From the IMG/VR virus record IMGVR_UViG_3300005095_000172, positions 64,001 to 80,143 of that record: 16,143 nt of DNA, one strand, 5' to 3'. Shown in pieces: positions 1 to 12,329 of this stretch (position 1 is the stretch's first letter; the number at the start of each line of letters is the position of its first letter). The position numbers and the translations under genes were made by a program. Under the pieces are notes generated by a model. The model made no database searches, had not been told where the DNA came from, and worked only from the letters and a program-made list of their open reading frames with translations. The DNA comes from a virus. Taxonomy: Duplodnaviria > Heunggongvirae > Uroviricota > Caudoviricetes.

Positions 1-218
1 CCATTCACGCACATATCTCTCTTTCCTGCTTCTCCAGGGATGATATAAGTACTAAATCTAGCACCATTATTCACATTTACAATGTCCACTTTTTGACCGA
101 CTCTCATGTTTGCCTTTTCTACAAGTTCTGTATCAATCGTGATTGAACCTACATAATTTAAGTTAGCGTCAGTCACCGTCGCCCTGTGGATTTTTCCTGT
201 TACCATTTCAATAGTCAT
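1..218 (-). CDS. panD: Aspartate 1-decarboxylase (pyruvoyl-dependent), N-terminal 72 codons; 3' end runs off the window; not in ORF track
   Basis: Manual translation from ATG at 218: [74 protein letters not shown]9, H11, the G24|S25 self-cleavage site, R54, T57 and Y58 all fall at canonical PanD positions. AGGAGA RBS at 223-228. Confidence 0.96.
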
Positions 219-241: not shown

Positions 242-778
242 TTATTTAACACCAAGGTCTTCTTTAATCATTTCATAAATTACATCCCATGTACAGTATG
301 GGTATTTATCACTTGGTGAGTTTAAGGAAGTTTTGATTTGAAAGACATTTACTCCTTCTTCGTACATTTCGTCACAATATCGCCTATAATCATCGACGAA
401 ATAATCACATTTCACGAACCGCTTATCAGCAGTAGAAATAAATCCTTCCATGTAAGGGAAATTTCTTCTAAGGAAGAATTTCTTAGAAGATTCGTGTTCG
501 GGCATACAAGCAGAAACAAATACTACTTTTACCCCTAAGTCATGAATTTTTTCAATGAAATACAATGCTGGCTCTAAAGCCATTAGATCGTCATAAAGTT
601 TAGGGTCTCTCCAAAATTTCAATGGGTCATCGTGTCTTTTCATAAGAGTTTCGAGATCATTATTCTCTGAGCTAATTTCCCCTATATCATGACCAGTAAG
701 TTTATGGTACCAATCTTTCCAAGGAGACACTGTATCAACTACTGTTAAATCGACATCTATCGCTATAATTTTTTCCAT
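242..778 (-). CDS. HAD-superfamily 5'(3')-deoxyribonucleotidase (NT5C-like)
   Basis: N-terminal [11 protein letters not shown] (DxDxT motif I), FVSA (motif II), K and FVDD (motifs III/IV); 178 aa; AAGGAA RBS upstream. Confidence 0.8.
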
Positions 779-838: not shown

Positions 839-876
839 GTTACGATTTTTCGTAACTATCACCTATAAATCGTAAC
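839..876. repeat. Inverted repeats: 10-bp perfect arms 839-848/867-876 and a nested 7-bp hairpin 839-845/850-856; possible terminator or operator
   Basis: GTTACGATTT (839-848) is the exact reverse complement of AAATCGTAAC (867-876). TTTTTCGTAACTATC occurs at 846-860 and again at 921-935. Confidence 0.6.
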
Positions 877-1532
877 TATTCGAAGAGCTTAGTATTATCC
901 TCATTACCATCTTCATCATATTTTTCGTAACTATCTTCACTTTCAGTGTAACCACCTTCCACTCTTTCGTGATTCAATTTATTCTTTTTCATATACAAAT
1001 CATACATTTCATTTGGCTCCATTTCCGCATAATGACAAAGTGCATTGATAAGGAACATAAACATATTCAAAGACTCTTCTTTTTCAGTTTGAAGTATAGA
1101 AAGAGCAAATACTGATGTAGAAGCAATCAAGTCAAAACTAACTCCGCCAGAAACTTCTTCGTTAATAATTTCTTCACCTGATTCTTTATAACTCGTAGAA
1201 CAAGCGTTATAGTCTGTCATCAAAGCATTTAAGTCTTTATTGTACTTCACTATCAATGAGCTTAATGTAAAGTGAATCATATCTACTGCTTCAACTTTAT
1301 TGTTATTTTCATCATTTTCAAGGTATGGTTTCCACCATTTCCAACCAGTTTCTGTGTCACCAGTTCTTGGGGAACTTTCTAGTAATTCCCCTAATTCGGC
1401 AAAAAACGCACTCAAAAGGTGAGATTGTGGAATTTTTTCAGCCCAATCTTCACCAGAATATTTTACATTAAGTTCAGCTTGAGCCTGAACAATCTCGTTA
1501 AAATCATCAATTTCCATTATCTTAAAACTCAT
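876..1532 (-). CDS. All-alpha dimeric dUTPase/dCTPase (dUTPase_2 family)
   Basis: AELGELLES, WKWWK, VEAVDMIHF and YMKKNKLNHER..GY motifs of dimeric all-alpha dUTPases. Start revised from 1580 to the ATG at 1532 (AGGAGA at 1537-1542), which removes the overlap with the upstream gene. Confidence 0.88.
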   Translation of the reverse strand: MSFKIMEIDDFNEIVQAQAELNVKYSGEDWAEKIPQSHLLSAFFAELGELLESSPRTGDTETGWKWWKPYLENDENNNKVEAVDMIHFTLSSLIVKYNKDLNALMTDYNACSTSYKESGEEIINEEVSGGVSFDLIASTSVFALSILQTEKEESLNMFMFLINALCHYAEMEPNEMYDLYMKKNKLNHERVEGGYTESEDSYEKYDEDGNEDNTKLFE

Positions 1533-1554
1533 TTGATCTCCTATTTTAATTATT

Positions 1555-2550
1555 TTATCCTTTATACCACTTTGGTTCATTACCTTCTAAAGGACTCCCA
1601 ACAAACATTTCGGTCATGTCCTCTACATTAGAAACATCCCATTTGGAAATATCTTTACTGAATGATGAACCATAGAACATATAACTCATGTCAATCACAT
1701 TAGAAACGTCCCACTTAGAAATATCTTTATTGAACTTCGATTCGCTAAACATTTCATTCATATCCTTTACATTAGAAACGTCCCACTTAGATATATCTCC
1801 GTTGAACTTCGATTTACTAAATGTATAAACCATGATCTCTACTTTAGATACATTCCATTTAGAAATATCTCCGTTGAATTCAGAGTTGTTGAACATTCCA
1901 CTTATATCTTTTACTTTAGATACATTCCATTTAGAAATATCTCCGTTGAATTCAGAGTTGTTGAACATATCAAACATCTTCTCTACTTTGGATACATTCC
2001 ATTTAGAAATATCTCCGTTGAAAGATGAGTCATAAAACATAAAGCTCATATCCTCTACATTAGAAACGTCCCATTTAGAAATATCTCCGTTGAACTTCGT
2101 TTCTCTAAACAAGCTATTCATATCCTTAACTTTAGAAACATCAATGTCATTCAAGTCTGCTTTATTCCCTCTTTCATCTATCAAATCTACGATAATAGAC
2201 ATAAGTTCTTTACTATTATTAGGAAAGTAACTATATACTTGAGCAGGCTTAAGTTTCTTAGGAGAAGATACTTTTCTACCTAAGAACTTTTGTACTCCTG
2301 TTCCTTTTAGTTCTTTAATGGAATTTAATTTCTTGTCTACTTCATAAAACTCTCCGTCTTCTTTAAATCCAATTAAATACCCTTCTCTATTCCATATCAA
2401 AGTAATGTTATCATATTCTACTTCTAGAATATCTCCATCTGTTACGATGTTCATTTTCTTGGAATTAAGAGATTTCTTTACCATTCTCAAGTGTTTGTTT
2501 GCTTGAGAACCATTCTTCACTTCATTTATTAATTCTCTAATACCTTTCAT
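1555..2550 (-). CDS. DUF285/BspA-like repeat protein with a distinct ~110-aa N-terminal region
   Basis: Seven 24-aa repeats of consensus FNGDISKW(D/N)VS(N/K)VxxMxxMFxxSx, preceded by the cap DLNDIDVSKVKDMNSLF; GGAGA RBS. Confidence 0.88.
   Translation of the reverse strand: MKGIRELINEVKNGSQANKHLRMVKKSLNSKKMNIVTDGDILEVEYDNITLIWNREGYLIGFKEDGEFYEVDKKLNSIKELKGTGVQKFLGRKVSSPKKLKPAQVYSYFPNNSKELMSIIVDLIDERGNKADLNDIDVSKVKDMNSLFRETKFNGDISKWDVSNVEDMSFMFYDSSFNGDISKWNVSKVEKMFDMFNNSEFNGDISKWNVSKVKDISGMFNNSEFNGDISKWNVSKVEIMVYTFSKSKFNGDISKWDVSNVKDMNEMFSESKFNKDISKWDVSNVIDMSYMFYGSSFSKDISKWDVSNVEDMTEMFVGSPLEGNEPKWYKG
1600..2140. repeat. 72-bp-period tandem coding repeat (about 7 units)
   Basis: A 57-bp block is identical at 1840-1896 and 1912-1968, with a near-identical partial copy from 1984. 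The motif ccatttagaaatatctccgttgaa recurs at 72-bp intervals. Confidence 0.92.
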
Positions 2551-2590: not shown

Positions 2591-3121
2591 TCACCCACAA
2601 GCACACATCGCTCCATCTAATCCGTTACAACTTCTACAACAAGTACAACCAGAACAAGACGAACAACTAACACAAGCACTACATCCTGAACAAGCGTTAC
2701 AACCAATACAAGCATTACAAGATGAACAAGAACCACTACACGCAGTGCAAGAAGTACAAGAGTGACAATCATCACAAGATGAACAAGAAGAGCAATCTGT
2801 GCAAGTACCTGAACTCACACAAGAACTACAAGCGACACAAGAACTTAACTCACTACAATTATCTTCACAAGAAACACAATTCCTACAAGAAAAACAATCG
2901 TGGCAATCATTACAAGACACACAATCAGCGCAATTTATACACCCTATACATGAATCGCAATTATCGCACCTATGGCAATTGAAACAATTAGTACAACCTT
3001 GTAAATCAACACTAGAAAGAGTTAAGTTATTCTCATCTAAAAATTGTTGAGTTACACCATTTTCTCCTGAAGAAGCGTTCTCTTTAAAATCATCATAATC
3101 TTCAAATAAACTTACTGACAT
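2591..3121 (-). CDS. Cys-rich CxxC-repeat protein with acidic N-terminal segment; function unknown
   Basis: About 42 Cys in 176 aa by hand count, mostly every third residue. First ~42 aa are Cys-free and acidic. AGGAGA RBS 5 nt before ATG. Confidence 0.85.
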   Translation of the reverse strand: MSVSLFEDYDDFKENASSGENGVTQQFLDENNLTLSSVDLQGCTNCFNCHRCDNCDSCIGCINCADCVSCNDCHDCFSCRNCVSCEDNCSELSSCVACSSCVSSGTCTDCSSCSSCDDCHSCTSCTACSGSCSSCNACIGCNACSGCSACVSCSSCSGCTCCRSCNGLDGAMCACG

Positions 3122-3129
3122 GAAATCTC

Positions 3130-3228
3130 CTATTGTTCGTATTTTCTTTCGTGGTTTTTCTTACTCCATAAAACCAATATGTATATCAACGCCACTCCAA
3201 TAGTGGCTATAATTTCTATTGTATTCAT
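3130..3228 (-). CDS. 32-aa single-pass membrane peptide; not in ORF track
   Basis: MNTIEIIATIGVALIYILVLWSKKNHERKYEQ*. GAGGA RBS upstream. It fills the gap between its neighbours and has a ~18-aa hydrophobic stretch followed by a basic tail. Confidence 0.7.
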   Translation of the reverse strand: MNTIEIIATIGVALIYILVLWSKKNHERKYEQ

Positions 3229-3237
3229 AAAATTCCT

Positions 3238-3627
3238 CTAAAATTCATCTTCTTTCAACCATCTAAATAAGACATAATTAAAGACAAAAAGTTCTTTTCC
3301 GAGTTTTTTGGCTATGTCCATAGAATGTTTTGTTCCGTTTGAATCTCCGTCCCAAATAGATAGAACAATATTTGAGTCTTCTACAATTTGTCTATTTCTG
3401 ATGAACGCTGCTGGTCTTCCGAATTTTTCCCAATTCGGTTTATGAATTATAGTTTGAATTCCCTTAACTTTAGCATAATGCTCAGCCATAGTATCCACAC
3501 CTTTAGCCCCTCCGGAAATAATTAAATCTATTTGCTTCCCAATAAGAAATTTACCCATGATTTCAGTAAATAACTCATAATCATCGAAACTTCTACTTCC
3601 AACAATAGCTAATTTATAACCATCCAT
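3238..3627 (-). CDS. SLOG-superfamily protein (DUF2493/YspA-related)
   Basis: LAIVGSRSF, IISGGAKGVDTMA, NW.KFG..A..IRN..IV and WDG.S.GT..S motifs. Confidence 0.85.
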   Translation of the reverse strand: MDGYKLAIVGSRSFDDYELFTEIMGKFLIGKQIDLIISGGAKGVDTMAEHYAKVKGIQTIIHKPNWEKFGRPAAFIRNRQIVEDSNIVLSIWDGDSNGTKHSMDIAKKLGKELFVFNYVLFRWLKEDEF

Positions 3628-3645
3628 GTCTTCTCTTTTTAGAAC

Positions 3646-4818
3646 TTATAGCCATTCACTAATAGAACACTCATTATCACAAACTTCAGGTTCTTCAGTC
3701 GGAACATATCTATTTCTTGGTCTTCCTGTACCACGTCTAGCTGAAGTATATTTACCAAGTTCACAGAAACTATTTTCACACATCATCACATTTAGACATC
3801 TATCATATTCTGGTAGATGGTCAAATAGTTCATTGAAATCAACGCTAAGTCCTCTTTTATCCCATTCTTTTTCAATGTTGTCTCTTACCCAGAATAGAGC
3901 TTCTTCATAATTCATACCATCTTTATCGTCAAATAATAGGTCAAGCCCTCTATCACATCCTGGTCCAGAAACAGTGAATTCGTTTTCACTAAACTTATAT
4001 TCTGGGATATAAGTTAAGTCCACGAAAACTTGATATGCTAAGAACTTAGAAAATCCAGGAATTTCCTTCAATATTTCGTATGCTTCTTCTTGAGAAGAAG
4101 TTGATGAGACTCTTTGATGGATATTATTATCTCTTGCCCATTTAACTAATTCGAGCATCCTCATTCTCATATCATATTCATAGTCCTTTATTTTCCAATC
4201 AGGATTTTCCTTAATGAATTCCTTTGCTTCTTTCAGTTTCATTTTCTTTATTTCTTCAGAATTATAAACTTCCACCTCTATTTCAGAACTGGTACACTCA
4301 TAGTATCGTTGTTTAGGGAAACACCAAGTTGCTCTGATACCTCCTGTATTGAATGCAGGAGTGAACCATACAAACTTAGGGTCTTTTTCATTTTCTTCCT
4401 TTATAATTTCTCTTATTTTTTCCATATCTTCTTTGGTAAAATTTAAGATATCAAAATCACCAGGAAAATTCAATTTCTCTAAAGTTTTCGATTTATTAAA
4501 GGTTCTAAATAAAATACTCCATAAAACCTTTTCTTCTAAAGTAAGATTAGGATTTTCACTAACATTCTTAATCAACCACTTAGACTCTCTGTCTAATTCT
4601 CTTCTAACATTCGTGAATCTGTAGTTTTTGAATACTTCATCTTCAGTCCATTCTTCTTGTGGGAGCTTATAAATCTCCTTTCTTTTATAGATATTATGTC
4701 TCTCGTATATATACTGCCTATGGTATCTAAGAACTTCTTCATTTAAAGTCGGATTCGCATTCTTTATCTTATCTTCATCAACACCACAATAAGGTATGTC
4801 ATCTGGTTTTGTTTTCAT
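3646..4818 (-). CDS. DNA base hypermodification protein, aGPT-Pplase1 / HMUDK_hel (5-hmdU DNA kinase helical domain) family
   Basis: YIYERHNIY..K.....EWTEDEVF..YRFTNVRRELDRES, LFRTFN, FLAYQVFVDLTY, GPGC.RGL and ENSFCE..KY match my recollection of this HhH-glycosylase-fold family. No Walker A motif visible. Confidence 0.8.
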   Translation of the reverse strand: MKTKPDDIPYCGVDEDKIKNANPTLNEEVLRYHRQYIYERHNIYKRKEIYKLPQEEWTEDEVFKNYRFTNVRRELDRESKWLIKNVSENPNLTLEEKVLWSILFRTFNKSKTLEKLNFPGDFDILNFTKEDMEKIREIIKEENEKDPKFVWFTPAFNTGGIRATWCFPKQRYYECTSSEIEVEVYNSEEIKKMKLKEAKEFIKENPDWKIKDYEYDMRMRMLELVKWARDNNIHQRVSSTSSQEEAYEILKEIPGFSKFLAYQVFVDLTYIPEYKFSENEFTVSGPGCDRGLDLLFDDKDGMNYEEALFWVRDNIEKEWDKRGLSVDFNELFDHLPEYDRCLNVMMCENSFCELGKYTSARRGTGRPRNRYVPTEEPEVCDNECSISEWL

Positions 4819-4819
4819 T

Positions 4820-5338
4820 TTATACCCCTAATAATCTAAATTTATTCAGTAATCTAATAAGAATTCTATCTTTTTGAGAGATGATGAAGCTTTCTAGTTC
4901 TTCTTTTAAAAGGAAGATTTCTTTCTCATCCTTTGTTTCAAGGTGATACCCATAATCTCTTTCTGAAATTTTACCGTTTCTGAGCAACTCTGCTGTCCTA
5001 TAAACCTTTTTCGGAATAACTACAGCGACACTTGTTCTGATTCCAGCTAATGTTTCATCGTCTTCCGTAAAATCAGCCCAAGGATAGTCACAAATTTCAT
5101 CTAAAGTTTCTACAATTTCTTGAAGACTTTTAGAATTTCCTCCGTCAAGAGCAATGTGCGTTTTATGGTCTCTTGTCCAATCAGATAACATTAGGAACTT
5201 CTTTACTTCTGAGATGGGAACTGATTCTGGTAGCTTCGGGTCTCCATACTTCACAAATAGTTCAGTAGTTGCGTGTCCTGATTGAATCCCCTTAGCAATA
5301 GGGGATAGCATCGTGTGAGTGAATGTATATAATCTCAT
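4820..5338 (-). CDS. Conserved phage protein, probable peptidyl-tRNA hydrolase II (PTH2)-like fold
   Basis: GIQSGHA (cf. AAQxxHA), W...HKTHIAL (cf. W...KIVL) and FTED....G..TSVAV resemble the PTH2-like pattern. ATGA overlap with fcl. Confidence 0.5.
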   Translation of the reverse strand: MRLYTFTHTMLSPIAKGIQSGHATTELFVKYGDPKLPESVPISEVKKFLMLSDWTRDHKTHIALDGGNSKSLQEIVETLDEICDYPWADFTEDDETLAGIRTSVAVVIPKKVYRTAELLRNGKISERDYGYHLETKDEKEIFLLKEELESFIISQKDRILIRLLNKFRLLGV

Positions 5339-6273
5339 CTATTTTCCTTGTATCTTACTTCATAAATTTTACTTATACCTGAATATAAGTCCGTTTTAGC
5401 TTCCCAACCAAGAGATTTCAATACTGAATAATCAGTTGTTTTAATAGGAGTCCCGTTAGGCTTACTTGTATCGAAAATGATATCTCCTTTATAATTAAAA
5501 ATCCCTTTAACCATTTCAGCCAACTCTTTAATTGAAATTGAGAATTTACTACCTACATTCATGAAAGACACCACTTGATTTCTATCAACTTCTTCCATAA
5601 CAAATAAACACGCTTCAGCTAAATCATCTACGAATAAAAATTCTCTTATTGGACTACCGTCTCCCCAAAGAGTTACTGAGTCTTGATTAAGTTTCTTAGC
5701 TAAATGAACCTTCTCCATGATCGCAGGTAACACATGAGAAGTTTCTAAATCAAAATTATCATTTAATCCGTATAGGTTAGTCGGCATAAGTGAAATGAAG
5801 TTGTCACCGAATTGTCTATATAATGAGTCACACATTTCTAACCCAGCTATTTTTGCAATGGCATATGGTTTATTTGTTTCTTCTAATTCTGAAGTGAGTA
5901 AATGTTCTTCCTTCATCGGTTGAGGAGAATATTTAGGGTATACACAAGTGCTCCCCAAAAATAGAAGTTTCTTAACAGAATTCTGATGGCTATAATTGAT
6001 CACATTACTTTCTATCATAAGATTTTCATAGATAAAATCATATGGGTAAGAATTGTTGGCCACTATACCGCCAACCTTAGCGGCAGCAAGGAATACATAT
6101 TCAGGTTTCTCTCTTTCAAAAAACTCTTGCACAGCTCTTTGGTCAGTTAAATCTAAATCTTCTCTATCTTTTAAGATTAAGTTATTATAACCATTTTTTA
6201 TTAAAGTTCGCTTAATAGCTTCTCCGACTAACCCGTTATGTCCTGCTACAAAAATTCTACTATCTTTTTTCAT
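5335..6273 (-). CDS. fcl: GDP-L-fucose synthase (GDP-4-keto-6-deoxy-D-mannose 3,5-epimerase/4-reductase)
   Basis: VAGHNGLVG, AAAKVGGI.AN, FLGSTCVYPK, PYAIAK (YxxxK), PTNLYG.NDNF, SHVLPA and WGDGSP.REFL.VDDLA motifs. Confidence 0.96.
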   Translation of the reverse strand: MKKDSRIFVAGHNGLVGEAIKRTLIKNGYNNLILKDREDLDLTDQRAVQEFFEREKPEYVFLAAAKVGGIVANNSYPYDFIYENLMIESNVINYSHQNSVKKLLFLGSTCVYPKYSPQPMKEEHLLTSELEETNKPYAIAKIAGLEMCDSLYRQFGDNFISLMPTNLYGLNDNFDLETSHVLPAIMEKVHLAKKLNQDSVTLWGDGSPIREFLFVDDLAEACLFVMEEVDRNQVVSFMNVGSKFSISIKELAEMVKGIFNYKGDIIFDTSKPNGTPIKTTDYSVLKSLGWEAKTDLYSGISKIYEVRYKENR

Positions 6274-7280
6274 AAATAATCCTTTAATACCATTTCACTG
6301 ACTAACTGTTTAAATGAAAATTCTGGTTTCCATCCTAATTCATTTCTAGCTTTCGTTGAATCCCCAAGAAGTTGTTCAACTTCAGTTGGTCTGAAATATT
6401 CCCTATTCACAGAAATGACCTTTCTTCCCACATCAAAATTTCTATCACTCGAAGATTTCACTACTCCAATTTCATCAACGCCACTTCCAGTAAATTCAAG
6501 TTCTATACCGATTACCCTAAATGCCTCTTGGATAAATTCCCTCACTGAATGAAATTCCCCTGAACTAGCCACATAATCATCTGGTTCATCTTGTTGTAAA
6601 ATCAACCACATCATTCTTATATAGTCTTTAGCGTGACCCCAGTCCCTTTTAGCATCCAAATTACCAAGTTCTAAAATAAAATTTTTATCATCCTTCATTC
6701 TTTTTATTCCTTTGGTAATTTTCCTAGTAACAAATTCTTCTCCCCTTTTTGGTGATTCATGGTTGAAAAGAATTCCATTACAAGCAAAAATCCCATAAGC
6801 TTCCCTAAAATTCACTACTGACCAAAATGCGTGTAGCTTAGAAACAGCATATGGGCTTCTTGGATAAAATGGTGTGGTTTCACTTTGAGGAATTTCTTGG
6901 ACTAATCCAAAAAGTTCTGAAGTCGACGCTTGGTAAAATTTACTATCCAATTCCAAGAACCTGATTGCCTCTAAGAAATGAACGACCGATTTAGCATTTG
7001 TATCTACCACCAAACTTGGGACAGAAAAACTATTCTTTACATTCGTGATGGCAGCTAAGTTATAGATTTCGTGTGGTCTTACTTCATTCAAGACTGAAAC
7101 AACAGACTGATAATCTGTAATATCCCCATAATGAAATTTAACATTAAATTCCTTGATGTCTCCCAAATCTCTTGGAGACATCCTTATAAATCCATGAACT
7201 TCATACCCTAATTTATAAAGGTATTCTGTTAAATAATAACCGTCCTGGCCAGTAATTCCTGTTATCAGTGCTCTTTTCAT
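6270..7280 (-). CDS. gmd: GDP-mannose 4,6-dehydratase
   Basis: ALITGITGQDGYYL, YQASTSELFG, FYPRSPYAVSK, GILFNHESP.RG..FVTRKIT and LGNLDAKRDWGHAKDY motifs. Confidence 0.97.
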   Translation of the reverse strand: MKRALITGITGQDGYYLTEYLYKLGYEVHGFIRMSPRDLGDIKEFNVKFHYGDITDYQSVVSVLNEVRPHEIYNLAAITNVKNSFSVPSLVVDTNAKSVVHFLEAIRFLELDSKFYQASTSELFGLVQEIPQSETTPFYPRSPYAVSKLHAFWSVVNFREAYGIFACNGILFNHESPKRGEEFVTRKITKGIKRMKDDKNFILELGNLDAKRDWGHAKDYIRMMWLILQQDEPDDYVASSGEFHSVREFIQEAFRVIGIELEFTGSGVDEIGVVKSSSDRNFDVGRKVISVNREYFRPTEVEQLLGDSTKARNELGWKPEFSFKQLVSEMVLKDYL

Positions 7281-8356
7281 CGAACTCTCCCATAAATGTC
7301 AGAATATCTAATAATGTCTTCTTCTATAAGCTTATCACCTATTTGAATTTCTACTATTTTCACTTCTTCGTTTGTTCTATTTTCAATTGAATGTTTTTCG
7401 TTAATTTCTATCAATACTTCCTCATTCTCTCTTACAGAGAAAGTTTTATTTCCCTTAGTCACAAAAACTTCTCCGTTAATGATAATCCAATATTCCTTCC
7501 TGAAATTATGAGACTGAAGTGAAAGTTTTCCATTTGGGTTTATGGTGATAAGTTTTATTTTAAATTTCTTACCAGAATCTAGTACTGAATAATTTCCCCA
7601 AGGTCTTTCAACAACATATTGACTGAGGTTATCTATGAATCTTCTCGTTTCTCCTATATCTTCCCAACTACATTCGAGGTGTTCCACACAAAGAGAAACT
7701 TCTCTTTTTTCGATGAAAGGAGAAATGTAGTTATCGAAACTTATATCCTTTATATCAGAATTGTCTAATAAGACTACTCCTTCTTCTAAATCAATCTCGT
7801 TTAATTCATAATCCAAAATAAGCTTTTCTTTTATTCTTCCTCTTATAGAATATATCCCAGAATTCCACAACCACCCATTTTGAATTAATTCACTTGCTAA
7901 TTCTACATTTGGTTTCTCCATGAATTCTTTTGTTTCTTTATTCAAATACCCGTATCCTGTATTCGGGAATAATGGTTCCACTCCATGTAAAGTTATATCA
8001 CAGTTAGAAATTTCTAACTTATTACAATCAACTAAATGGTCTGAAGGAAGAAAGTTTACTAAATCATAAGAAGCCTTAGAAAGTATATAAATGAATTGAG
8101 TAAGTGTATTTCTTTTGAATTTTTCTACTATAATCTTCTTTACATTAATGTCTAAATCACTAATCTGTTCCTTAACAATTTCTAGATATTTTTCATTCGT
8201 GAAGACAAAAATATCACCTGATGCTCTATTAAGAGCATTTTGGAATGTTGATAGTCCTTCAAAGCATCTTATGAATTGCTTAGGGTATTCTGGATCACCT
8301 ATATTCATTCTAGTTCCAGAACCACCAGCCATAATTACGGTTGCAACATTTTCCAC
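7277..8356 (-). CDS. manC: Mannose-1-phosphate guanylyltransferase / mannose-6-phosphate isomerase (compact, diverged)
   Basis: VIMAGGSGTR, PKQF, GYGY, FMEKP, WNSG and WEDIG, plus a C-terminal cupin (ERPWG, LSLQSH..R.E.W). GTG start with AGGAG RBS. Confidence 0.88.
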   Translation of the reverse strand: MENVATVIMAGGSGTRMNIGDPEYPKQFIRCFEGLSTFQNALNRASGDIFVFTNEKYLEIVKEQISDLDINVKKIIVEKFKRNTLTQFIYILSKASYDLVNFLPSDHLVDCNKLEISNCDITLHGVEPLFPNTGYGYLNKETKEFMEKPNVELASELIQNGWLWNSGIYSIRGRIKEKLILDYELNEIDLEEGVVLLDNSDIKDISFDNYISPFIEKREVSLCVEHLECSWEDIGETRRFIDNLSQYVVERPWGNYSVLDSGKKFKIKLITINPNGKLSLQSHNFRKEYWIIINGEVFVTKGNKTFSVRENEEVLIEINEKHSIENRTNEEVKIVEIQIGDKLIEEDIIRYSDIYGRVR

Positions 8357-10045
8357 CTAAATCTCCTGGATAGCTTCTTTAAACCAAAGTGGGAATAAAT
8401 CTTTATTTAACAACCGTTCAAAATTGGTATCTGGTATAAAGAATTCACACCAATCATCTTCATGTCTAACTCCACGACCGTAACTTTGGGTAAGTTTATT
8501 TGCCGCTTCCTTTACATACCATCTAGGATAAAGTTCAGCTTTCTTTCTTACATAGACATCTCCTAATGAAGCATATTGGACTTTAGTAAGTATTTGAAAT
8601 CTGGCTAAATCGTCTTTAAAATCATACCCTTCAAATACACTTGGGCTAAGTAACACATAATCTTCTTTAGAATTGATGAAGTCATCAATAGTAAAATCAT
8701 CCGTTGGGATTTTCAATCTTCCATTCCTGACCCTCTTAGCAATTTCATATGCGTAATGGTAACTTGATGTATGGATAATTCCCTTATTTCCTCTATTCTT
8801 GGAGAGAATTTCAGTAATGAAAGAAGATATAGTATCAAGTGAATTTTCTTGGTTGTTATATGAAAAGTTTACTAAAGGGATATAGTAAATTGGTCTATTT
8901 TCCTTCTTGAAAACTCCTTCTAAGGAAAGGACTTCGCATTCGTTTTCATCTAATCCCAATTCTTTCATATAGACTTTCATGTCACCAACAGTAGCCGACA
9001 TATGTAAGTGGAAATCTGCTTTCTTTAATAGGATATGATTAGCACTCGAACTCGCGAAAACAGGAGTTATTTTCACTACTCCGTCCTCATTTTCTTCAAA
9101 AACAAATTTGGAACCAATACAAGAATTAGTCACTGAATTGAATTTGTTATAGAGATTATTTAGATATTCTGTCAATCTATAAAAACTGTCTGGAATTTTC
9201 ACATTTGATTCATCTATTTCTATACCAAATTCTTTCATAGAAGAAAGTGATTTTTTTAACTTAGTTTCTTTCGCTTTATCTAAATTTTCTATTGCCAAAA
9301 ATAAACCAGAACTTATATTTTCACTTAAATCCATCAATTTATCGTTTAAAATAACAAGTTCATTTTCAACGGAAGCTTTCAAAGAAGACTTGAACTGAAG
9401 AATTTCTTCTATTAGAGATTTTATACTAAAATCTATCGGTAGTTCTTCTTTCACCTTTAAAAATGGAGATATGATGTTGTCTCTAATTTCTTTTGTGTCT
9501 AAGGTTAAAGTGCTTCTAGAAATAATTTCTTCTGAAATGTTATGACACTCATCTATCACTGTACAATCTGATTTGAATTCACCATCACAAACAAGTTCAT
9601 CACATTGGCACATAAATGAAAAGTTTGTCATCCTGATAGACGCAGATTCTTTCCAAACTTCTCTTCTCTGAACATAAGGACATTCTCCTTTTGGTCTACA
9701 CCACTTACTTTTTACAAAAACTTCACAAGCAGGTGAACCATAAACTACTCCTTCCCGTTTGATACAAGGATAATTCGTTTTACCTTTTAGGTCAAATACA
9801 TCTTTGAATTCTGAATTATATTGATCTTGAAGAGCTTTTGTCTTAGTGATAATTGTAGTTCGTTTACCATTTTCTTTAAGGTATCTAGCAAATGTGACTG
9901 CTATTCCTGACTTTCCTGTACCAGTAGGTGCTTCAAGGATAAAGTGCTTCTTCCCGTTATTATAAGCGTTTATAATTGCCTCTATTGCGACCTCTTGTTG
10001 AGGTCTTATTTCTGTGTATGGGAATAATTCTTTCCAATGTTTCAT
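8357..10045 (-). CDS. DinG/XPD(Rad3)-family SF2 helicase with a predicted 4Fe-4S cluster
   Basis: Q motif (RPQQ), EAPTGTGKS, C-x12-C-x8-C-x5-C after LKGKTNY, DECH, MSAT, EGYDF and QSYGRGVRH. The ATG at 10045 overlaps the gp43B stop (ATGA); the ORF track uses GTG 10054. Confidence 0.88.
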   Translation of the reverse strand: MKHWKELFPYTEIRPQQEVAIEAIINAYNNGKKHFILEAPTGTGKSGIAVTFARYLKENGKRTTIITKTKALQDQYNSEFKDVFDLKGKTNYPCIKREGVVYGSPACEVFVKSKWCRPKGECPYVQRREVWKESASIRMTNFSFMCQCDELVCDGEFKSDCTVIDECHNISEEIISRSTLTLDTKEIRDNIISPFLKVKEELPIDFSIKSLIEEILQFKSSLKASVENELVILNDKLMDLSENISSGLFLAIENLDKAKETKLKKSLSSMKEFGIEIDESNVKIPDSFYRLTEYLNNLYNKFNSVTNSCIGSKFVFEENEDGVVKITPVFASSSANHILLKKADFHLHMSATVGDMKVYMKELGLDENECEVLSLEGVFKKENRPIYYIPLVNFSYNNQENSLDTISSFITEILSKNRGNKGIIHTSSYHYAYEIAKRVRNGRLKIPTDDFTIDDFINSKEDYVLLSPSVFEGYDFKDDLARFQILTKVQYASLGDVYVRKKAELYPRWYVKEAANKLTQSYGRGVRHEDDWCEFFIPDTNFERLLNKDLFPLWFKEAIQEI

Positions 10046-11214
10046 ATCAACCACTCATCCATTTCAAAATTTTGATCCAATTCATAACCTACCGCTTCTA
10101 ACATAATCTTTAATGGTGAAATGAAGAAATCTTCCCACATTCTTTCTCTGTCTATAAATTTCATTAAACCAGAATCTTCTATGAATTGAGAATCTATAAA
10201 AGCAATCACATCATCGCCTAGAATATTCGGTTTCTTCAAGAAAATGTATTTTATCTTATCAGCATCAGTGATTTTAGGATACTTAGTCAAGCCAGTGTTC
10301 CCTATAAAGTTATTAAAGTTCATAGCGGCACGTACATTCATTGGAGCCGTAAGGGTCTTCCCGTTCTTGAAAGTGGTGTATCTACCAATTTCTCCTTCAT
10401 ACTCTAGAGAACCGATACCACTTACTCTTGCAATATCATCTATTGGTGCTTCCCAAAATAGTTCTTCTATCTCAGTCAATCTTTCAATCGTACTCTTTGC
10501 GTCGTTGTCAAGAATAACTTCTACCATATCCTTTAAGTACTTCCTACAAAATGAAGGTGTACTAGAACGGACAATTTCTAGTCCAGTAACAGCTAGTTTC
10601 GGTTTCTCTAGTAGAATAGAGCCTTCATCCCACACTGCTCTCAAAGCATATTTCTTTTTAGCAACAAATAACCCTTTATCAGCTATTTTTTCCAGTTTAG
10701 CCCCGATTGGATCTTTGTTAAAAGCATTAAATGTATCTGAATATTCTTCAATATATTCCTGTACCCAGACATCAAGATATCTCTTATCGAAATTTATGAG
10801 TTTATCTAGAATAACTTTTTTATCCTGTTCATTAAATTTTTCGACCAATTTCCCCAAAGTAAAATATACCGAATCAGTATCCCCATACACTACAAAGTCG
10901 AAGTTTTCAACCTTCAGTACTTTCTTAAGTTTATCGTTTATGAAGTTAGCTAACCCTTGAATAAAAATCCTTCCATTCCCAGTAATAGAAGCAGCAACAT
11001 CCCTATTAAAAAGGAGAAAATGTACATTGGCAAGTGCTCCATAAAGAGAGTTGATTGAAATTTTTAGAGCCATTTGGTATGTATTGTAATATGCAGAACG
11101 GCTTTCTATGTGAGATGTGTCGGAACCAGAAAGGTGAGAAAGGTCCATATTGTTTATTTCATCGATGGTCATAGAACCATCTTCTATTTTTTCGTAAATT
11201 TCTTCTAGTGTCAT
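10042..11214 (-). CDS. Family B DNA polymerase, C-terminal subunit (gp43B-like: second finger helix, palm, thumb)
   Basis: KISINSLYG (motif B), YGDTDS (motif C), KKKYA and GLEIVRSSTP. It has its own GGAG RBS and promoter. Confidence 0.95.
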   Translation of the reverse strand: MTLEEIYEKIEDGSMTIDEINNMDLSHLSGSDTSHIESRSAYYNTYQMALKISINSLYGALANVHFLLFNRDVAASITGNGRIFIQGLANFINDKLKKVLKVENFDFVVYGDTDSVYFTLGKLVEKFNEQDKKVILDKLINFDKRYLDVWVQEYIEEYSDTFNAFNKDPIGAKLEKIADKGLFVAKKKYALRAVWDEGSILLEKPKLAVTGLEIVRSSTPSFCRKYLKDMVEVILDNDAKSTIERLTEIEELFWEAPIDDIARVSGIGSLEYEGEIGRYTTFKNGKTLTAPMNVRAAMNFNNFIGNTGLTKYPKITDADKIKYIFLKKPNILGDDVIAFIDSQFIEDSGLMKFIDRERMWEDFFISPLKIMLEAVGYELDQNFEMDEWLI

Positions 11215-11239
11215 TGATTACTCCGAAATGGTATCATAT

Positions 11240-11271
11240 ATCATACCAAATGAACCTTAAGAGCGACTTAA
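11240..11271 (-). promoter_or_regulatory. Putative promoter for gp43B and the downstream operon
   Basis: Minus strand TTAAG-N6-TTAAG-N10-TATGAT, with a second TATGAT at 11233-11238. The TGGTAT/ATACCA inverted repeat (11229-11248) overlaps it. Confidence 0.65.
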
Positions 11272-11276
11272 CGATC

Positions 11277-11501
11277 TCATTCAAATGACTCTGAATCGTA
11301 TCCATCCCAATAAATTTCCCCGAAATATTCTCTTTCAAGTTTGTAAGTAATTTCTTTAAGTTTGTGCATCAAAGTGTCATAATCAATATATTCCACGTTT
11401 GGAATTCTTCCTATTTGATACAAGCCACTTCCACCGTTCATTCTTTCGATGAACGCTTCTTCTGCTACTGATTTCAGGATGTCTTCATATCTTTCAAGCA
11501 T
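11277..11501 (-). CDS. Hypothetical acidic protein (74 aa)
   Basis: Start revised to ATG 11501, 6 nt after AAGGA and overlapping the end of the upstream ORF. No family recognised. Confidence 0.65.
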   Translation of the reverse strand: MLERYEDILKSVAEEAFIERMNGGSGLYQIGRIPNVEYIDYDTLMHKLKEITYKLEREYFGEIYWDGYDSESFE

Positions 11502-11826
11502 TACCATTCCTTTTCTCAACCCAATAAGCTTCAGTTTCCTCTTTAGTCATCTCGACTTGCTCAAAGTAACAACCACTATAACCGTCTGCCGCAGCATTGT
11601 TTTTAGCGTTGTATAGATTACTCACTAAAGAATTAATTGTCTTAGGGGTTCTATTGATCCTTTTGTTGCCATTTTCGTGTTGCCAGCTTTGACCAACTTC
11701 AAGAGTATAACTATATACCCGAACCAACTCATGGAGAGTTCCTACTTGCTCATAAGTTCTTGTTTCACCACCGAAACGACCTGACTTGCTCATAACTACT
11801 TTGTAAACTTTTGGTGATCTTGCCAT
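11494..11826 (-). CDS. Hypothetical phage protein (110 aa)
   Basis: AGAAAGG RBS within the repeated cassette. The GTLHEL...YSYTLE.G.S......KRIN..PKTINSLV segment looks like a conserved phage hypothetical from memory (unverified). Confidence 0.8.
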   Translation of the reverse strand: MARSPKVYKVVMSKSGRFGGETRTYEQVGTLHELVRVYSYTLEVGQSWQHENGNKRINRTPKTINSLVSNLYNAKNNAAADGYSGCYFEQVEMTKEETEAYWVEKRNGNA

Positions 11827-11874
11827 TTTTAAGCCTTTCTAACTTTAGATATAATTCATTGTACTGTAACTTAG
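11824..11874 (-). repeat. Promoter/RBS/start-codon cassette, copy 1
   Basis: The 22 bp at 11824-11845 are identical to 12223-12244, and the 13 bp at 11862-11874 are identical to 12264-12276. It contains -10 TACAAT, the RBS and ATG. Confidence 0.88.
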
Positions 11875-11889
11875 TCTGATCTTTATTAA

Positions 11890-12225
11890 TTAAGCAAATA
11901 TTTTTGCGGTTTCTGAAACAAGCTCAGATACACCGTATTCAGCCCAAAGTTTTCTATACTTTTCATCTGACACATAAGAAACATTACTGAGACCAGCGTG
12001 TGCGTTTGCGGAGGCATAATCGAACCCAATTTCGTCTAAAGTCAAGAAAAGTTCCCAACCAGTAGTACCGAGTATCATAATTCTTTTATTTCCACCACCA
12101 TTAACCAAACCAACTGATGACTTAAACTTTATACCAGCAATTTCAACTACCGTAGTCAAATATAGTCCGTCCCATCTTGGGTCCATTTTTACAGTCACGC
12201 CTTGGATTTTATTCAAGTTTTTCAT
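11890..12225 (-). CDS. Hypothetical protein (111 aa)
   Basis: ORF with AGAAAGG RBS and promoter in cassette copy 2; no family recognised. Confidence 0.78.
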   Translation of the reverse strand: MKNLNKIQGVTVKMDPRWDGLYLTTVVEIAGIKFKSSVGLVNGGGNKRIMILGTTGWELFLTLDEIGFDYASANAHAGLSNVSYVSDEKYRKLWAEYGVSELVSETAKIFA

Positions 12226-12292
12226 TTTTAAGCCTTTCTAACTTAGTTTGATATACTATATCATACTGTAACTTAGCTTAAACATTGCTTAA
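12223..12292 (-). promoter_or_regulatory. Promoter/RBS/start-codon cassette, copy 2, with the full upstream periodic motif
   Basis: Minus strand TTAAG-N6-TTAAG-N11-TATGAT...AGAAAGGCTTAAAAATG. Confidence 0.8.
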
Positions 12293-12329
12293 ATTTAATT
12301 TCCTTAAAAATTCTCTTTCTCGGGAGAAA

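Follow-up and report, generated by a model that had tools for sequence, protein, structure and literature searches.

We analysed a 16,143-nucleotide stretch of viral DNA (hereafter the window), which corresponds to bases 64001-80143 of the IMG/VR record IMGVR_UViG_3300005095_000172. The record (140,623 bp, 33% G+C) represents a T4-like phage carrying a split family-B polymerase and ~234 open reading frames (ORFs), nearly all on the minus strand. At positions 2591-11271 of the window, the catalytic C-terminal half of the polymerase (PolB-C), a DinG/XPD-like helicase, a cassette for the synthesis of GDP-L-fucose and a homologue of gp160 of Salmonella phage ViI follow one another in a tight row, which a preliminary description had interpreted as one coupled operon producing a fucosylated pyrimidine in phage DNA. 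Its gene list was borne out when the gene calls were checked by Pfam, PHROG and NCBIfam profiles, and the principal genes are the following:

10042-11214, minus strand: DNA polymerase B, catalytic C-half of split gp43, ending ...FEMDEWLI (PF00136, 3e-21; phrog_262, 3e-91)
8357-10054, minus strand: DinG/XPD-like superfamily-2 helicase, likely start ATG at 10045 (Helicase_C_2, ResIII; phrog_2488, 7e-115)
7277-8356, minus strand: manC-like mannose-1-phosphate guanylyltransferase (PF00483 at 6-244, phosphomannose isomerase (PMI)-type cupin PF01050 at 248-353)
6270-7280, minus strand: gmd, GDP-mannose 4,6-dehydratase (PF16363, 5e-126 over 1-332 of 332 positions; TIGR01472)
5335-6273, minus strand: fcl, GDP-L-fucose synthase (top match NF047922)
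4820-5338, minus strand: PTH2-like phage protein (peptidyl-tRNA-hydrolase-2 fold; phrog_3668, 7e-27; Atlas structure matches)
3646-4818, minus strand: HMUDK_hel protein, homologue of ViI gp160 (aG/PT-PPlase1 paralogue), 390 aa, with the tail ...SISEWL (PF18723, 3e-64)
3238-3627, minus strand: SLOG/YAcAr protein (DprA-like Rossmann), downstream partner of the gp160-like gene (PF10686, 6e-13)

We favour, with a probability of about 0.58, the reading that at least three functionally separate modules make up this row as a mosaic and that GDP-fucose goes to a glycan other than DNA. PolB-C and the helicase would form a replication module. The manC-gmd-fcl cassette and the PTH2-like gene, lodged between PolB-C and the gp160-like gene, would be an accessory module, whose most likely users are the phage's soluble glycosyltransferases (a fusion of GT32-like and family 2 (GT2) domains, a WcaE-like GT2, a third GT2 and a Stealth-like protein). 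The third module, including the gp160-type protein, would carry out thymidine hypermodification of the known amino-acid type. An EW[LVI] tail shared by DNA-acting enzymes, and lacking from the sugar enzymes, would tether the former to the sliding clamp. The arrangement is one of known kinds of modules, namely a GDP-fucose cassette and the amino-acid route of thymidine hypermodification.

The lineage is remote from described phages. When the 8.7-kb stretch was compared by megablast with 50,697 phage records, no match was returned, and because the best polymerase match is merely 35% identical (Vibrio phage Va1 group), no named phage was usable as a relative. Five lineage relatives were compared: L145 (same contig as L005), L006 (record G002), L146, L147 (record G003) and L149.

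The fucose cassette and the hypermodification genes

Judged from family membership, the manC product would supply GDP-mannose, which Gmd would dehydrate and Fcl would then reduce to GDP-L-fucose. Gmd passes the equivalog cut-off of TIGR01472 (445.6 bits versus 415). Fcl scores 430.3 bits against NF047922 (cut-off 500), its top match by >360 bits, and is 59-64% identical to many cellular proteins annotated as GDP-L-fucose synthase; its closest 310-residue homologues proved to belong to polysaccharide loci of cellular type rather than to phages of the window lineage. The manC-like protein is ~110 residues shorter than the bifunctional GMP/PMI model TIGR01479 and reaches 182 bits against a cut-off of 373. 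Homologues of gmd were found in 239 phage records, the largest groups being Escherichia phages (90) and Synechococcus phages (65), and for both gmd and fcl the identity to copies from cyanophages and marine viruses is 52-58%. The gmd and fcl genes of Synechococcus phage S-SKS1 are likewise a canonical accessory set, and chlorovirus PBCV-1 encodes GMD/GMER. The window phage differs from these carriers in that its genes are placed between a polymerase half and the hypermodification genes of a hydroxymethyluracil (hmU) phage, and in that a sulfotransferase and a fusion resembling 3'-phosphoadenosine 5'-phosphosulfate (PAPS) synthase are encoded elsewhere in the same genome. The PTH2-like protein matches PTH2 structure clusters in the Atlas (TM 0.54-0.71) and has homologues in 163 phage records, some beside a tRNA nucleotidyltransferase; G002 carries the gene at another location. 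Neither a scan of viral contigs nor a PDB sequence search with this protein gave a match.

The remainder of the window, downstream of the row, holds two conserved genes of the hypermodification pathway and the first of its tailoring genes:

876-1580, minus strand: dUTPase_2-family all-alpha NTP pyrophosphatase, conserved hmU core (PF08761, 6e-19; in all five relatives)
242-778, minus strand: NT5C-type deoxynucleotide 5'-nucleotidase, conserved core (PF06941; in all five relatives)
1-218, minus strand: PanD-type aspartate decarboxylase, N-terminal part; the whole ORF spans genome positions 63844-64218 (PF02261, 1.4e-47 for the whole ORF)

Beyond PanD, outside the window, follow a class-II GATase (GATase_6), AADT (PF18724), HMUD2 kinase (PF18747), an Amidoligase_2 protein and a ThyA-like enzyme interrupted by an HNH intein. 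The ThyA-like enzyme (g116), the kinase (g119) and AADT (g120) thus lie together directly downstream of the window, the co-occurrence by which Lee et al. recognise the pathway, and the ViI homologue of NT5C adjoins the kinase gp243. This set makes the pathway complete and supports the prediction, already present in the preliminary description, that the phage hypermodifies a pyrimidine, here thymidine by way of 5-hydroxymethyl-2'-deoxyuridine (5-hmdU) and of the amino-acid type. The ThyA-like enzyme would make 5-hm-dUMP, and the dUTPase_2 and NT5C proteins would shape the nucleotide pool. The HMUD2 kinase would phosphorylate 5-hmdU in DNA after replication, AADT would swap the phosphate for an amino acid, and the GATase, amidoligase and PanD would tailor the product, with the HMUDK_hel protein as the ViI gp160-type helix-hairpin-helix (HhH) member of the pathway. 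By analogy, we infer post-replicative chemistry like that of ViI, M6, PaMx11 and PhiW-14, in which 5-hmdU is converted through 5-phosphomethyl-2'-deoxyuridine (5-PmdU) into an amino-acid adduct that is then tailored; the ThyA-like enzyme, HMUD2 kinase and AADT are common to both (PMC8989533, PMC11472151). The window phage differs from these phages in its tailoring set (PanD, class-II GATase and Amidoligase_2) and in having a GDP-fucose cassette embedded in the locus; no pyridoxal-phosphate (PLP) decarboxylase, radical-S-adenosylmethionine (SAM) enzyme or flavin (FAD) enzyme was found in its hypermodification cluster. The modified base of ViI itself, 5-(2-aminoethoxy)methyl-2'-deoxyuridine (5-NeOmdU), is free of sugar (PMC8989533).

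The gp160-like protein clearly belongs to this machinery by family: it scores 217 bits against PF18723 (gathering cut-off 25) and is 38% identical to ViI gp160 over its full length (395 columns, 5e-74). Despite the family name, a role as a kinase ('HMUDK') was rejected, since the protein lacks a P-loop (no Walker A motif GxxxxGK[ST]) and no kinase family matched; the real kinase is ORF g119 (37 bits against PF18747, cut-off 25). Lee et al. (2018) likewise described gp160 as an aG/PT-PPlase1 paralogue with a predicted DNA-glycosylase fold rather than a kinase (PMC5889632). In the 2021 reconstitution the serine:DNA transferase was gp247, and Table 1 of that paper gives functions to gp67, gp226, gp243 and gp247 and none to gp160 (PMC8989533). 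A structure model of the window protein built with nine homologues (pLDDT 84) was most similar, by VIA, to the queuine-salvage enzyme DUF2419 (Z 8.7), the PaMx11 glycine:DNA transferase gp46 (Z 8.1, root mean square deviation 4.6 Å over 215 residues) and HhH DNA glycosylases (Z 7.7-4.6). All of the top 16 rows belonged to these three groups, with Z values of 8.7-4.6 that are middling for helical proteins. Foldseek alone found nothing at E <= 0.001 (best gp46, E = 0.25), and a PDB sequence search with the protein's profile found no match. The model therefore predicts a base-flipping-type helical protein of the hypermodification machinery with an HhH DNA-glycosylase-like fold. The protein has an invariant Cys352-Glu353 pair, at most a candidate counterpart of Cys247 of gp46, and alignment with the phage's own AADT by hhalign revealed no similarity of the protein bodies, only the shared C-terminal tail (probability 0.3).

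The likeness to the ViI system extends to the missing P-loop, the glycosylase-like predicted fold, the presence in the same phage of a ThyA-like enzyme, 5-HMUDK and AADT, and a C-terminal tail common to polymerase, kinase and AADT. Unlike ViI gp160, the window protein directly follows the polymerase C-half or an inserted cassette and has an insertion at approximately residues 164-226. Its downstream partner, the SLOG/YAcAr protein, is 26% identical to ViI gp176; it was counted as present in four of the five lineage relatives, with L146 and L149 named as those where it was not found. Between the gp160-like and SLOG genes, L145 has an extra ORF of 259 aa (L145:11151-11930) ending in ...CSIDEWL like the gp160-like protein, and L147 has a 28-residue remnant of this tail (12119-12202). 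The extra ORF may encode a further clamp-tethered protein or represent a duplicated tail.

Test of linkage between the cassette and hypermodification genes

In all five lineage relatives the gp160-like gene is kept beside PolB-C, with the cassette in between only in L147. In L145, L006, L146 and L149 PolB-C directly adjoins the gp160-like gene without gmd or fcl; in L006 the latter starts at the next base. The 110-kb G002 genome (71% complete) has no gmd, fcl, manC, DinG-like or GT2 genes, compared with three GT2 genes in the window genome. ViI has homologues of the gp160-like protein, AADT, ThyA, NT5C, SLOG and the DinG-like helicase and lacks manC, gmd and fcl. HMUDK_hel homologues occur in 363 phage records, mainly of phages of enterobacteria and Vibrio. 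Conversely, no ThyA-like, kinase, AADT or gp160-like gene is present in 122 viral loci (1.7 Mb in total) that surround the closest gmd/fcl homologues of viruses, including L122, where fcl lies ~5 kb from PolB. G004, a 100%-complete 62-kb phage unrelated to the lineage, encodes a type-A AADT (the short form also present in the window phage; 56-60% identity), GATase and kinase, and has neither gmd nor GT2. Sugar-nucleotide genes thus do not travel regularly with the base-modification genes, gmd/fcl being present in one of the five relatives and in neither ViI nor G004.

The preliminary description had proposed examining whether gmd/fcl and HMUDK_hel stay syntenic, and held that relatives keeping one without the other would speak against a joint pathway. 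Linkage was found in one of five relatives, and the comparative half of that outcome is largely what we observe, because HMUDK_hel is kept without gmd/fcl and gmd/fcl without hypermodification genes. The gp160-like protein is not specific to fucose: its assignment to the hypermodification machinery stands, and the fucose-related role proposed for it, as activator of the base or non-canonical transferase, is poorly supported, given its retention where gmd and fcl are absent.

The DinG-like gene behaves as a separate unit. It is absent at the PolB-C site in all five relatives and from the 110-kb G002 as a whole, and membership in the fucose cassette was rejected, L147 carrying the cassette without it. 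It is a replication/repair gene with a mobility of its own, which was inserted at the PolB-C junction that also took in the cassette. Its product is 31% identical to ViI Vi01_106c and has Cys97, 110, 119 and 125 between motifs I (GTGKS) and II (DECH), the superfamily-2 framework and four intervening cysteines expected of an XPD/DinG-type Fe-S helicase, consistent with that predicted identity; DEAD_2 matched at 16 bits, under its 21-bit cut-off. PolB-C is 73-80% identical in the lineage relatives.

The lineage swaps tailoring cassettes (L147:14689-18415, L017:6444-9460, L158:10001-11593). Type A consists of a 330-aa AADT, GATase and amidoligase, with PanD only in the window phage; in L147 the amidoligase is fused to the kinase in a 700-aa protein. 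Type B comprises an AADT of ~411-430 aa and a 596-aa protein (HMUD1 kinase plus an N-terminal part without assigned family). The four relatives other than L147 have the long type-B AADT, 72-79% identical among themselves and ~26% identical to type A. Such swaps in a lineage of uncultured T4-like phages offer natural contrasts for assigning functions to the tailoring genes.

A shared C-terminal tail and the destination of GDP-fucose

The ending [DES]EW[LVI] is present on only five of the 234 ORFs, where ~0.05 would be expected by chance (a rough estimate from amino-acid frequencies): the HMUD2 kinase, AADT, the gp160-like protein, a phrog_107 exonuclease and an 85-aa protein. The tail-bearing genome ORFs include g90, g119, g120 and g148, and the C-terminus of the gp160-like protein is encoded at window positions 3646-3666; PolB-C (10042-10065) ends similarly in DEWLI. 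The tails are kept in relatives (L145, L146, L147, G002) on PolB-C, the gp160-like protein, both AADT types and the kinase. In ViI, a different motif is shared in an analogous manner by the polymerase (gp43), gp160, gp247 and gp243 (...VNLLSMM, ...VNLLDRL, ...VNLMSLL and ...VSLLGLM). The polymerases of T4 and RB69 bind the gp45 clamp through their C-termini. The T4 alpha-glucosyltransferase also binds this clamp (Sommer et al. 2004; PMC13216743), a precedent for recruitment of a DNA-modifying enzyme to the replication clamp, which differs from the present case in the enzymes and the base involved and in that binding of EW[LVI] to the clamp is, here, predicted. The reconstitution by Lee et al. 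(2021) makes no mention of a clamp (PMC8989533).

The clamp of the window phage is g92 (phrog_223), which a PF02916 search did not find; g147, at the position of T4 gp45, was rejected as it is helical. A predicted complex between g92 and the 50 C-terminal residues of the gp160-like protein scored 0.44 (best control 0.00; runs agreeing in at least 9% of contacts, partner pLDDT at least 37), lending weak support to an interaction. When the tool was calibrated, 58 of the 80 solved complexes and 2 of the 110 mismatched pairs attained the pass mark; scores of 0.60 or under were given to only 7 of those 80 solved complexes, but to both passing mismatches. The tail probably serves to bind the sliding clamp and so to hold the DNA-acting enzymes of hypermodification at the replisome, and, given its likeness to the polymerase terminus, the pathway is probably tied to replication, as the preliminary description had supposed. 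Hypermodification enzymes riding the clamp would explain how a post-replicative modification keeps pace with replication, and a lineage-specific C-terminal tail could serve as a sequence mark for finding DNA-acting enzymes. None of the glycosyltransferases has the tail, nor do the products of manC, gmd, fcl and the PTH2-like gene.

The genes that could consume GDP-fucose lie elsewhere in the genome, at a distance of 35-45 kb:

genome 103913-111804 (L012:5913-13804): glycan cluster, with a GT32-like+GT2 fusion (g181), a Stealth_CR2-like protein, a short-chain dehydrogenase, a Sulfotransfer_1 sulfotransferase, a fusion of adenosine 5'-phosphosulfate (APS) kinase and nucleotidyltransferase (possible mini PAPS synthase) and a WcaE-like GT2 (g188)
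genome 116516-117286 (L012:18516-19286): third GT2

The cluster occupies a variable tRNA region between two tRNA arrays (25 tRNAs), and all of its genes are absent from the sister phage G002. In NCBIfam, g188 scores highest against WcaE, a glycosyltransferase of colanic-acid synthesis, though at 72 bits it stays far under the cut-off, and a g188-like GT2 adjoins gmd in record MT837289; viral-contig scans with g188 and g181 found no close relatives, nor did tblastn of g181 against the phage records. This gene content suggests a sulfated, fucose-containing glycan made by the phage. No glycosyltransferase family was matched by Pfam, PHROG or NCBIfam among the window ORFs or in the adjacent hypermodification cluster, and the three GT2 genes are ~30-45 kb away from that locus, so the linkage of a glycosyltransferase to base-modification genes that characterises T4 hmC glucosylation, base J and SP-15/Carin-5 is not seen. 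The glycosyltransferase/sulfotransferase cluster is the likelier user of GDP-fucose, and we infer that the acceptor is most likely a non-DNA glycoconjugate, putatively a host envelope glycan or a virion protein. The fucosylated base attributed to the row is correspondingly disfavoured, with HMUDK_hel found without gmd/fcl in four of five relatives and ViI, none of the 122 gmd/fcl loci holding a hypermodification gene, and no glycosyltransferase in the window.

Several observations nevertheless weigh against a destination outside DNA. A hydrophobicity scan of the phage glycosyltransferases found no membrane segments, so the acceptor may be a soluble one such as DNA. In L147, exactly the same site is occupied by gmd, fcl, the PTH2-like gene and what is left of manC, a cupin-only ORF, without DinG; L147 also shares with the window phage the short type-A AADT (65% identity), GATase and amidoligase. 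A tree of seven core proteins places L006, rather than L147, as the sister of the window phage, and the approximately unbiased (AU) test rejects a clade of window phage and L147 (p = 0.003). Since the genes between the fucose and type-A cassettes show no special similarity between these two phages, the cassettes have changed together twice. This amounts to two of two concordant independent contrasts, which is not significant (sign test, p = 0.5); the covariation hints at a functional link of the fucose cassette to hypermodification. The amidoligase, GATase and PanD also lack the EW[LVI] tail, so its absence from the sugar enzymes argues only weakly against DNA as acceptor. Finally, the glycosylated, oligosaccharide-bearing thymidines of Bacillus phage SP-15, Yersinia phage YerA41 and Cobetia phage Carin-5 are a precedent, and sugar-nucleotide and glycosyltransferase genes by the polymerase gene have been proposed to build those of Carin-5 and YerA41 (PMC12686479). 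These thymidine modifiers resemble the window phage in having sugar genes near the polymerase; they differ in their family-A polymerases with a domain resembling uracil-DNA glycosylase (UDG) and their (di)hydroxypentyl linker with phosphate, and no 5-HMUDK/AADT route and no fucose have been reported for them (PMC12686479). The window phage, for its part, has no glycosyltransferase near the polymerase.

The alternative to which these points lead is that GDP-L-fucose is put on a hydroxyl or amine of the hypermodified thymidine side chain by a phage glycosyltransferase or by the gp160-like protein as a non-canonical transferase, and that the distant cluster could contribute sulfate or additional sugars. 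We consider this unlikely. It would account for gmd-fcl-PTH2 abutting the gp160-like gene in two non-sister phages and covarying with type-A AADT, GATase and amidoligase, and for the sister G002 having neither the fucose cassette nor any GT2 gene nor the type-A cassette; ViI gp247 shows, moreover, that the AADT enzyme class can use a hydroxyl nucleophile (PMC8989533). Against it stand the conservation of the gp160-like gene without gmd/fcl in four lineage relatives and ViI, its matches in 363 phage records, the complete G004 genome with type-A AADT and no gmd or GT2, the 122 viral gmd/fcl loci devoid of hypermodification genes, and the position of untailed glycosyltransferases in a variable tRNA region rather than in or beside the hypermodification cluster, three of whose DNA-acting enzymes bear the tail. 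The more specific proposal that type-A members carry L-fucose on an amino-acid-derived side chain, a glyco-amino-acid thymidine new to DNA, is doubtful; within it, the GT2/GT32/Stealth/sulfotransferase cluster may extend or sulfate the fucosylated side chain, and this use would be the reason why the cassette has stayed next to the gp160-like gene. If true, fucose on DNA would be a new class of base modification, with a bearing on evasion of restriction and CRISPR and on the resistance of some phage DNA to sequencing.

It is similarly improbable that the cassette is a stand-alone auxiliary metabolic module raising or redirecting the host GDP-fucose/GDP-mannose pool for lipopolysaccharide, capsule or exopolysaccharide, with no tie to phage glycosyltransferases or DNA. 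The spread of gmd, often with fcl, in marine T4-like phages and cyanophages without nearby phage-specific partners would fit such a role, as would the fully canonical appearance of Fcl and the presence of gmd/fcl in G003 (82 kb, 53% complete), in which no GT2 was found. Yet the window phage encodes at least four glycosyltransferase domains, one in a WcaE-like GT2, as well as a Stealth-like protein and a sulfotransferase, all of which need activated sugars and, like the cassette, are absent from the sister phage. That the cassette is a functionless or decaying passenger of a permissive site is very improbable, even though most relatives lack it, manC of L147 has shrunk to a cupin-only ORF and the site between PolB-C and the gp160-like gene has also taken in the DinG-like gene. 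Gmd and Fcl are intact in two phages in which these proteins are only 58-60% identical, which means that selection has maintained the cassette for a long time; in addition, gmd exceeds a curated equivalog cut-off, the base composition of the cassette matches that of the genome, and its genes are translationally coupled.

Spacing of the row and minor features

The following features complete the row:

11215-11276, minus strand: 62-nt spacer upstream of PolB-C with a candidate promoter, TTAAGG-16-TATGAT (sequence reading)
3130-3228, minus strand: putative 32-aa ORF with a single hydrophobic segment (ORF and hydrophobicity reading)
2591-3121, minus strand: Cys-rich protein, 176 aa, with CxxC repeats almost throughout (phrog_15341, 3e-14), specific to the window phage

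The junctions reported in the preliminary description were confirmed. PolB-C and the helicase gene overlap by ATGA if the latter starts at the ATG at 10045, helicase and manC are spaced by 0 nt, the manC/gmd, gmd/fcl and fcl/PTH2-like junctions are each 4-nt overlaps, and gaps of 1, 18, 9 and 8 nt follow below the PTH2-like gene down to the Cys-rich gene. A terminator scan of the minus-strand intergenic gaps of 2591-11271 detected no terminator-like sites, again in agreement. The promoter placed at 11240-11271 fared less well: only 8 of its 12 consensus positions fit, and the promoter scan passed it over. That scan scored 50 promoter-like sites in the window, fewer than the 65 of shuffled sequence, and the 32-mer has no second copy elsewhere in the genome. 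Co-directional tight packing continues on both sides of the row and covers nearly all of the 140-kb genome, so the limits of 'one operon' are arbitrary and the spacing within 2591-11271 does not exceed the genome background. Thus, of the coupled operon the tight gene row is real, whereas its boundaries are arbitrary and its modules separate. The more general caution is that, where a phage genome is packed densely on a single strand, genes that are adjacent and translationally coupled do not for that reason form a pathway.

Two genes near the end of the row, the Cys-rich gene and one for a DUF285 protein (window 1555-2550) inside the hypermodification locus, are specific to the window phage and absent from all five relatives. 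At the other end, the PolB halves are split by three small ORFs (80, 110 and 111 aa; window 11277-12329) without Pfam matches. In L006, ~2.9 kb (L006:5235-8124) separate the PolB N-half match from the next shared ORF (g136), far more than in the window phage, and insertions seem to favour the split site.

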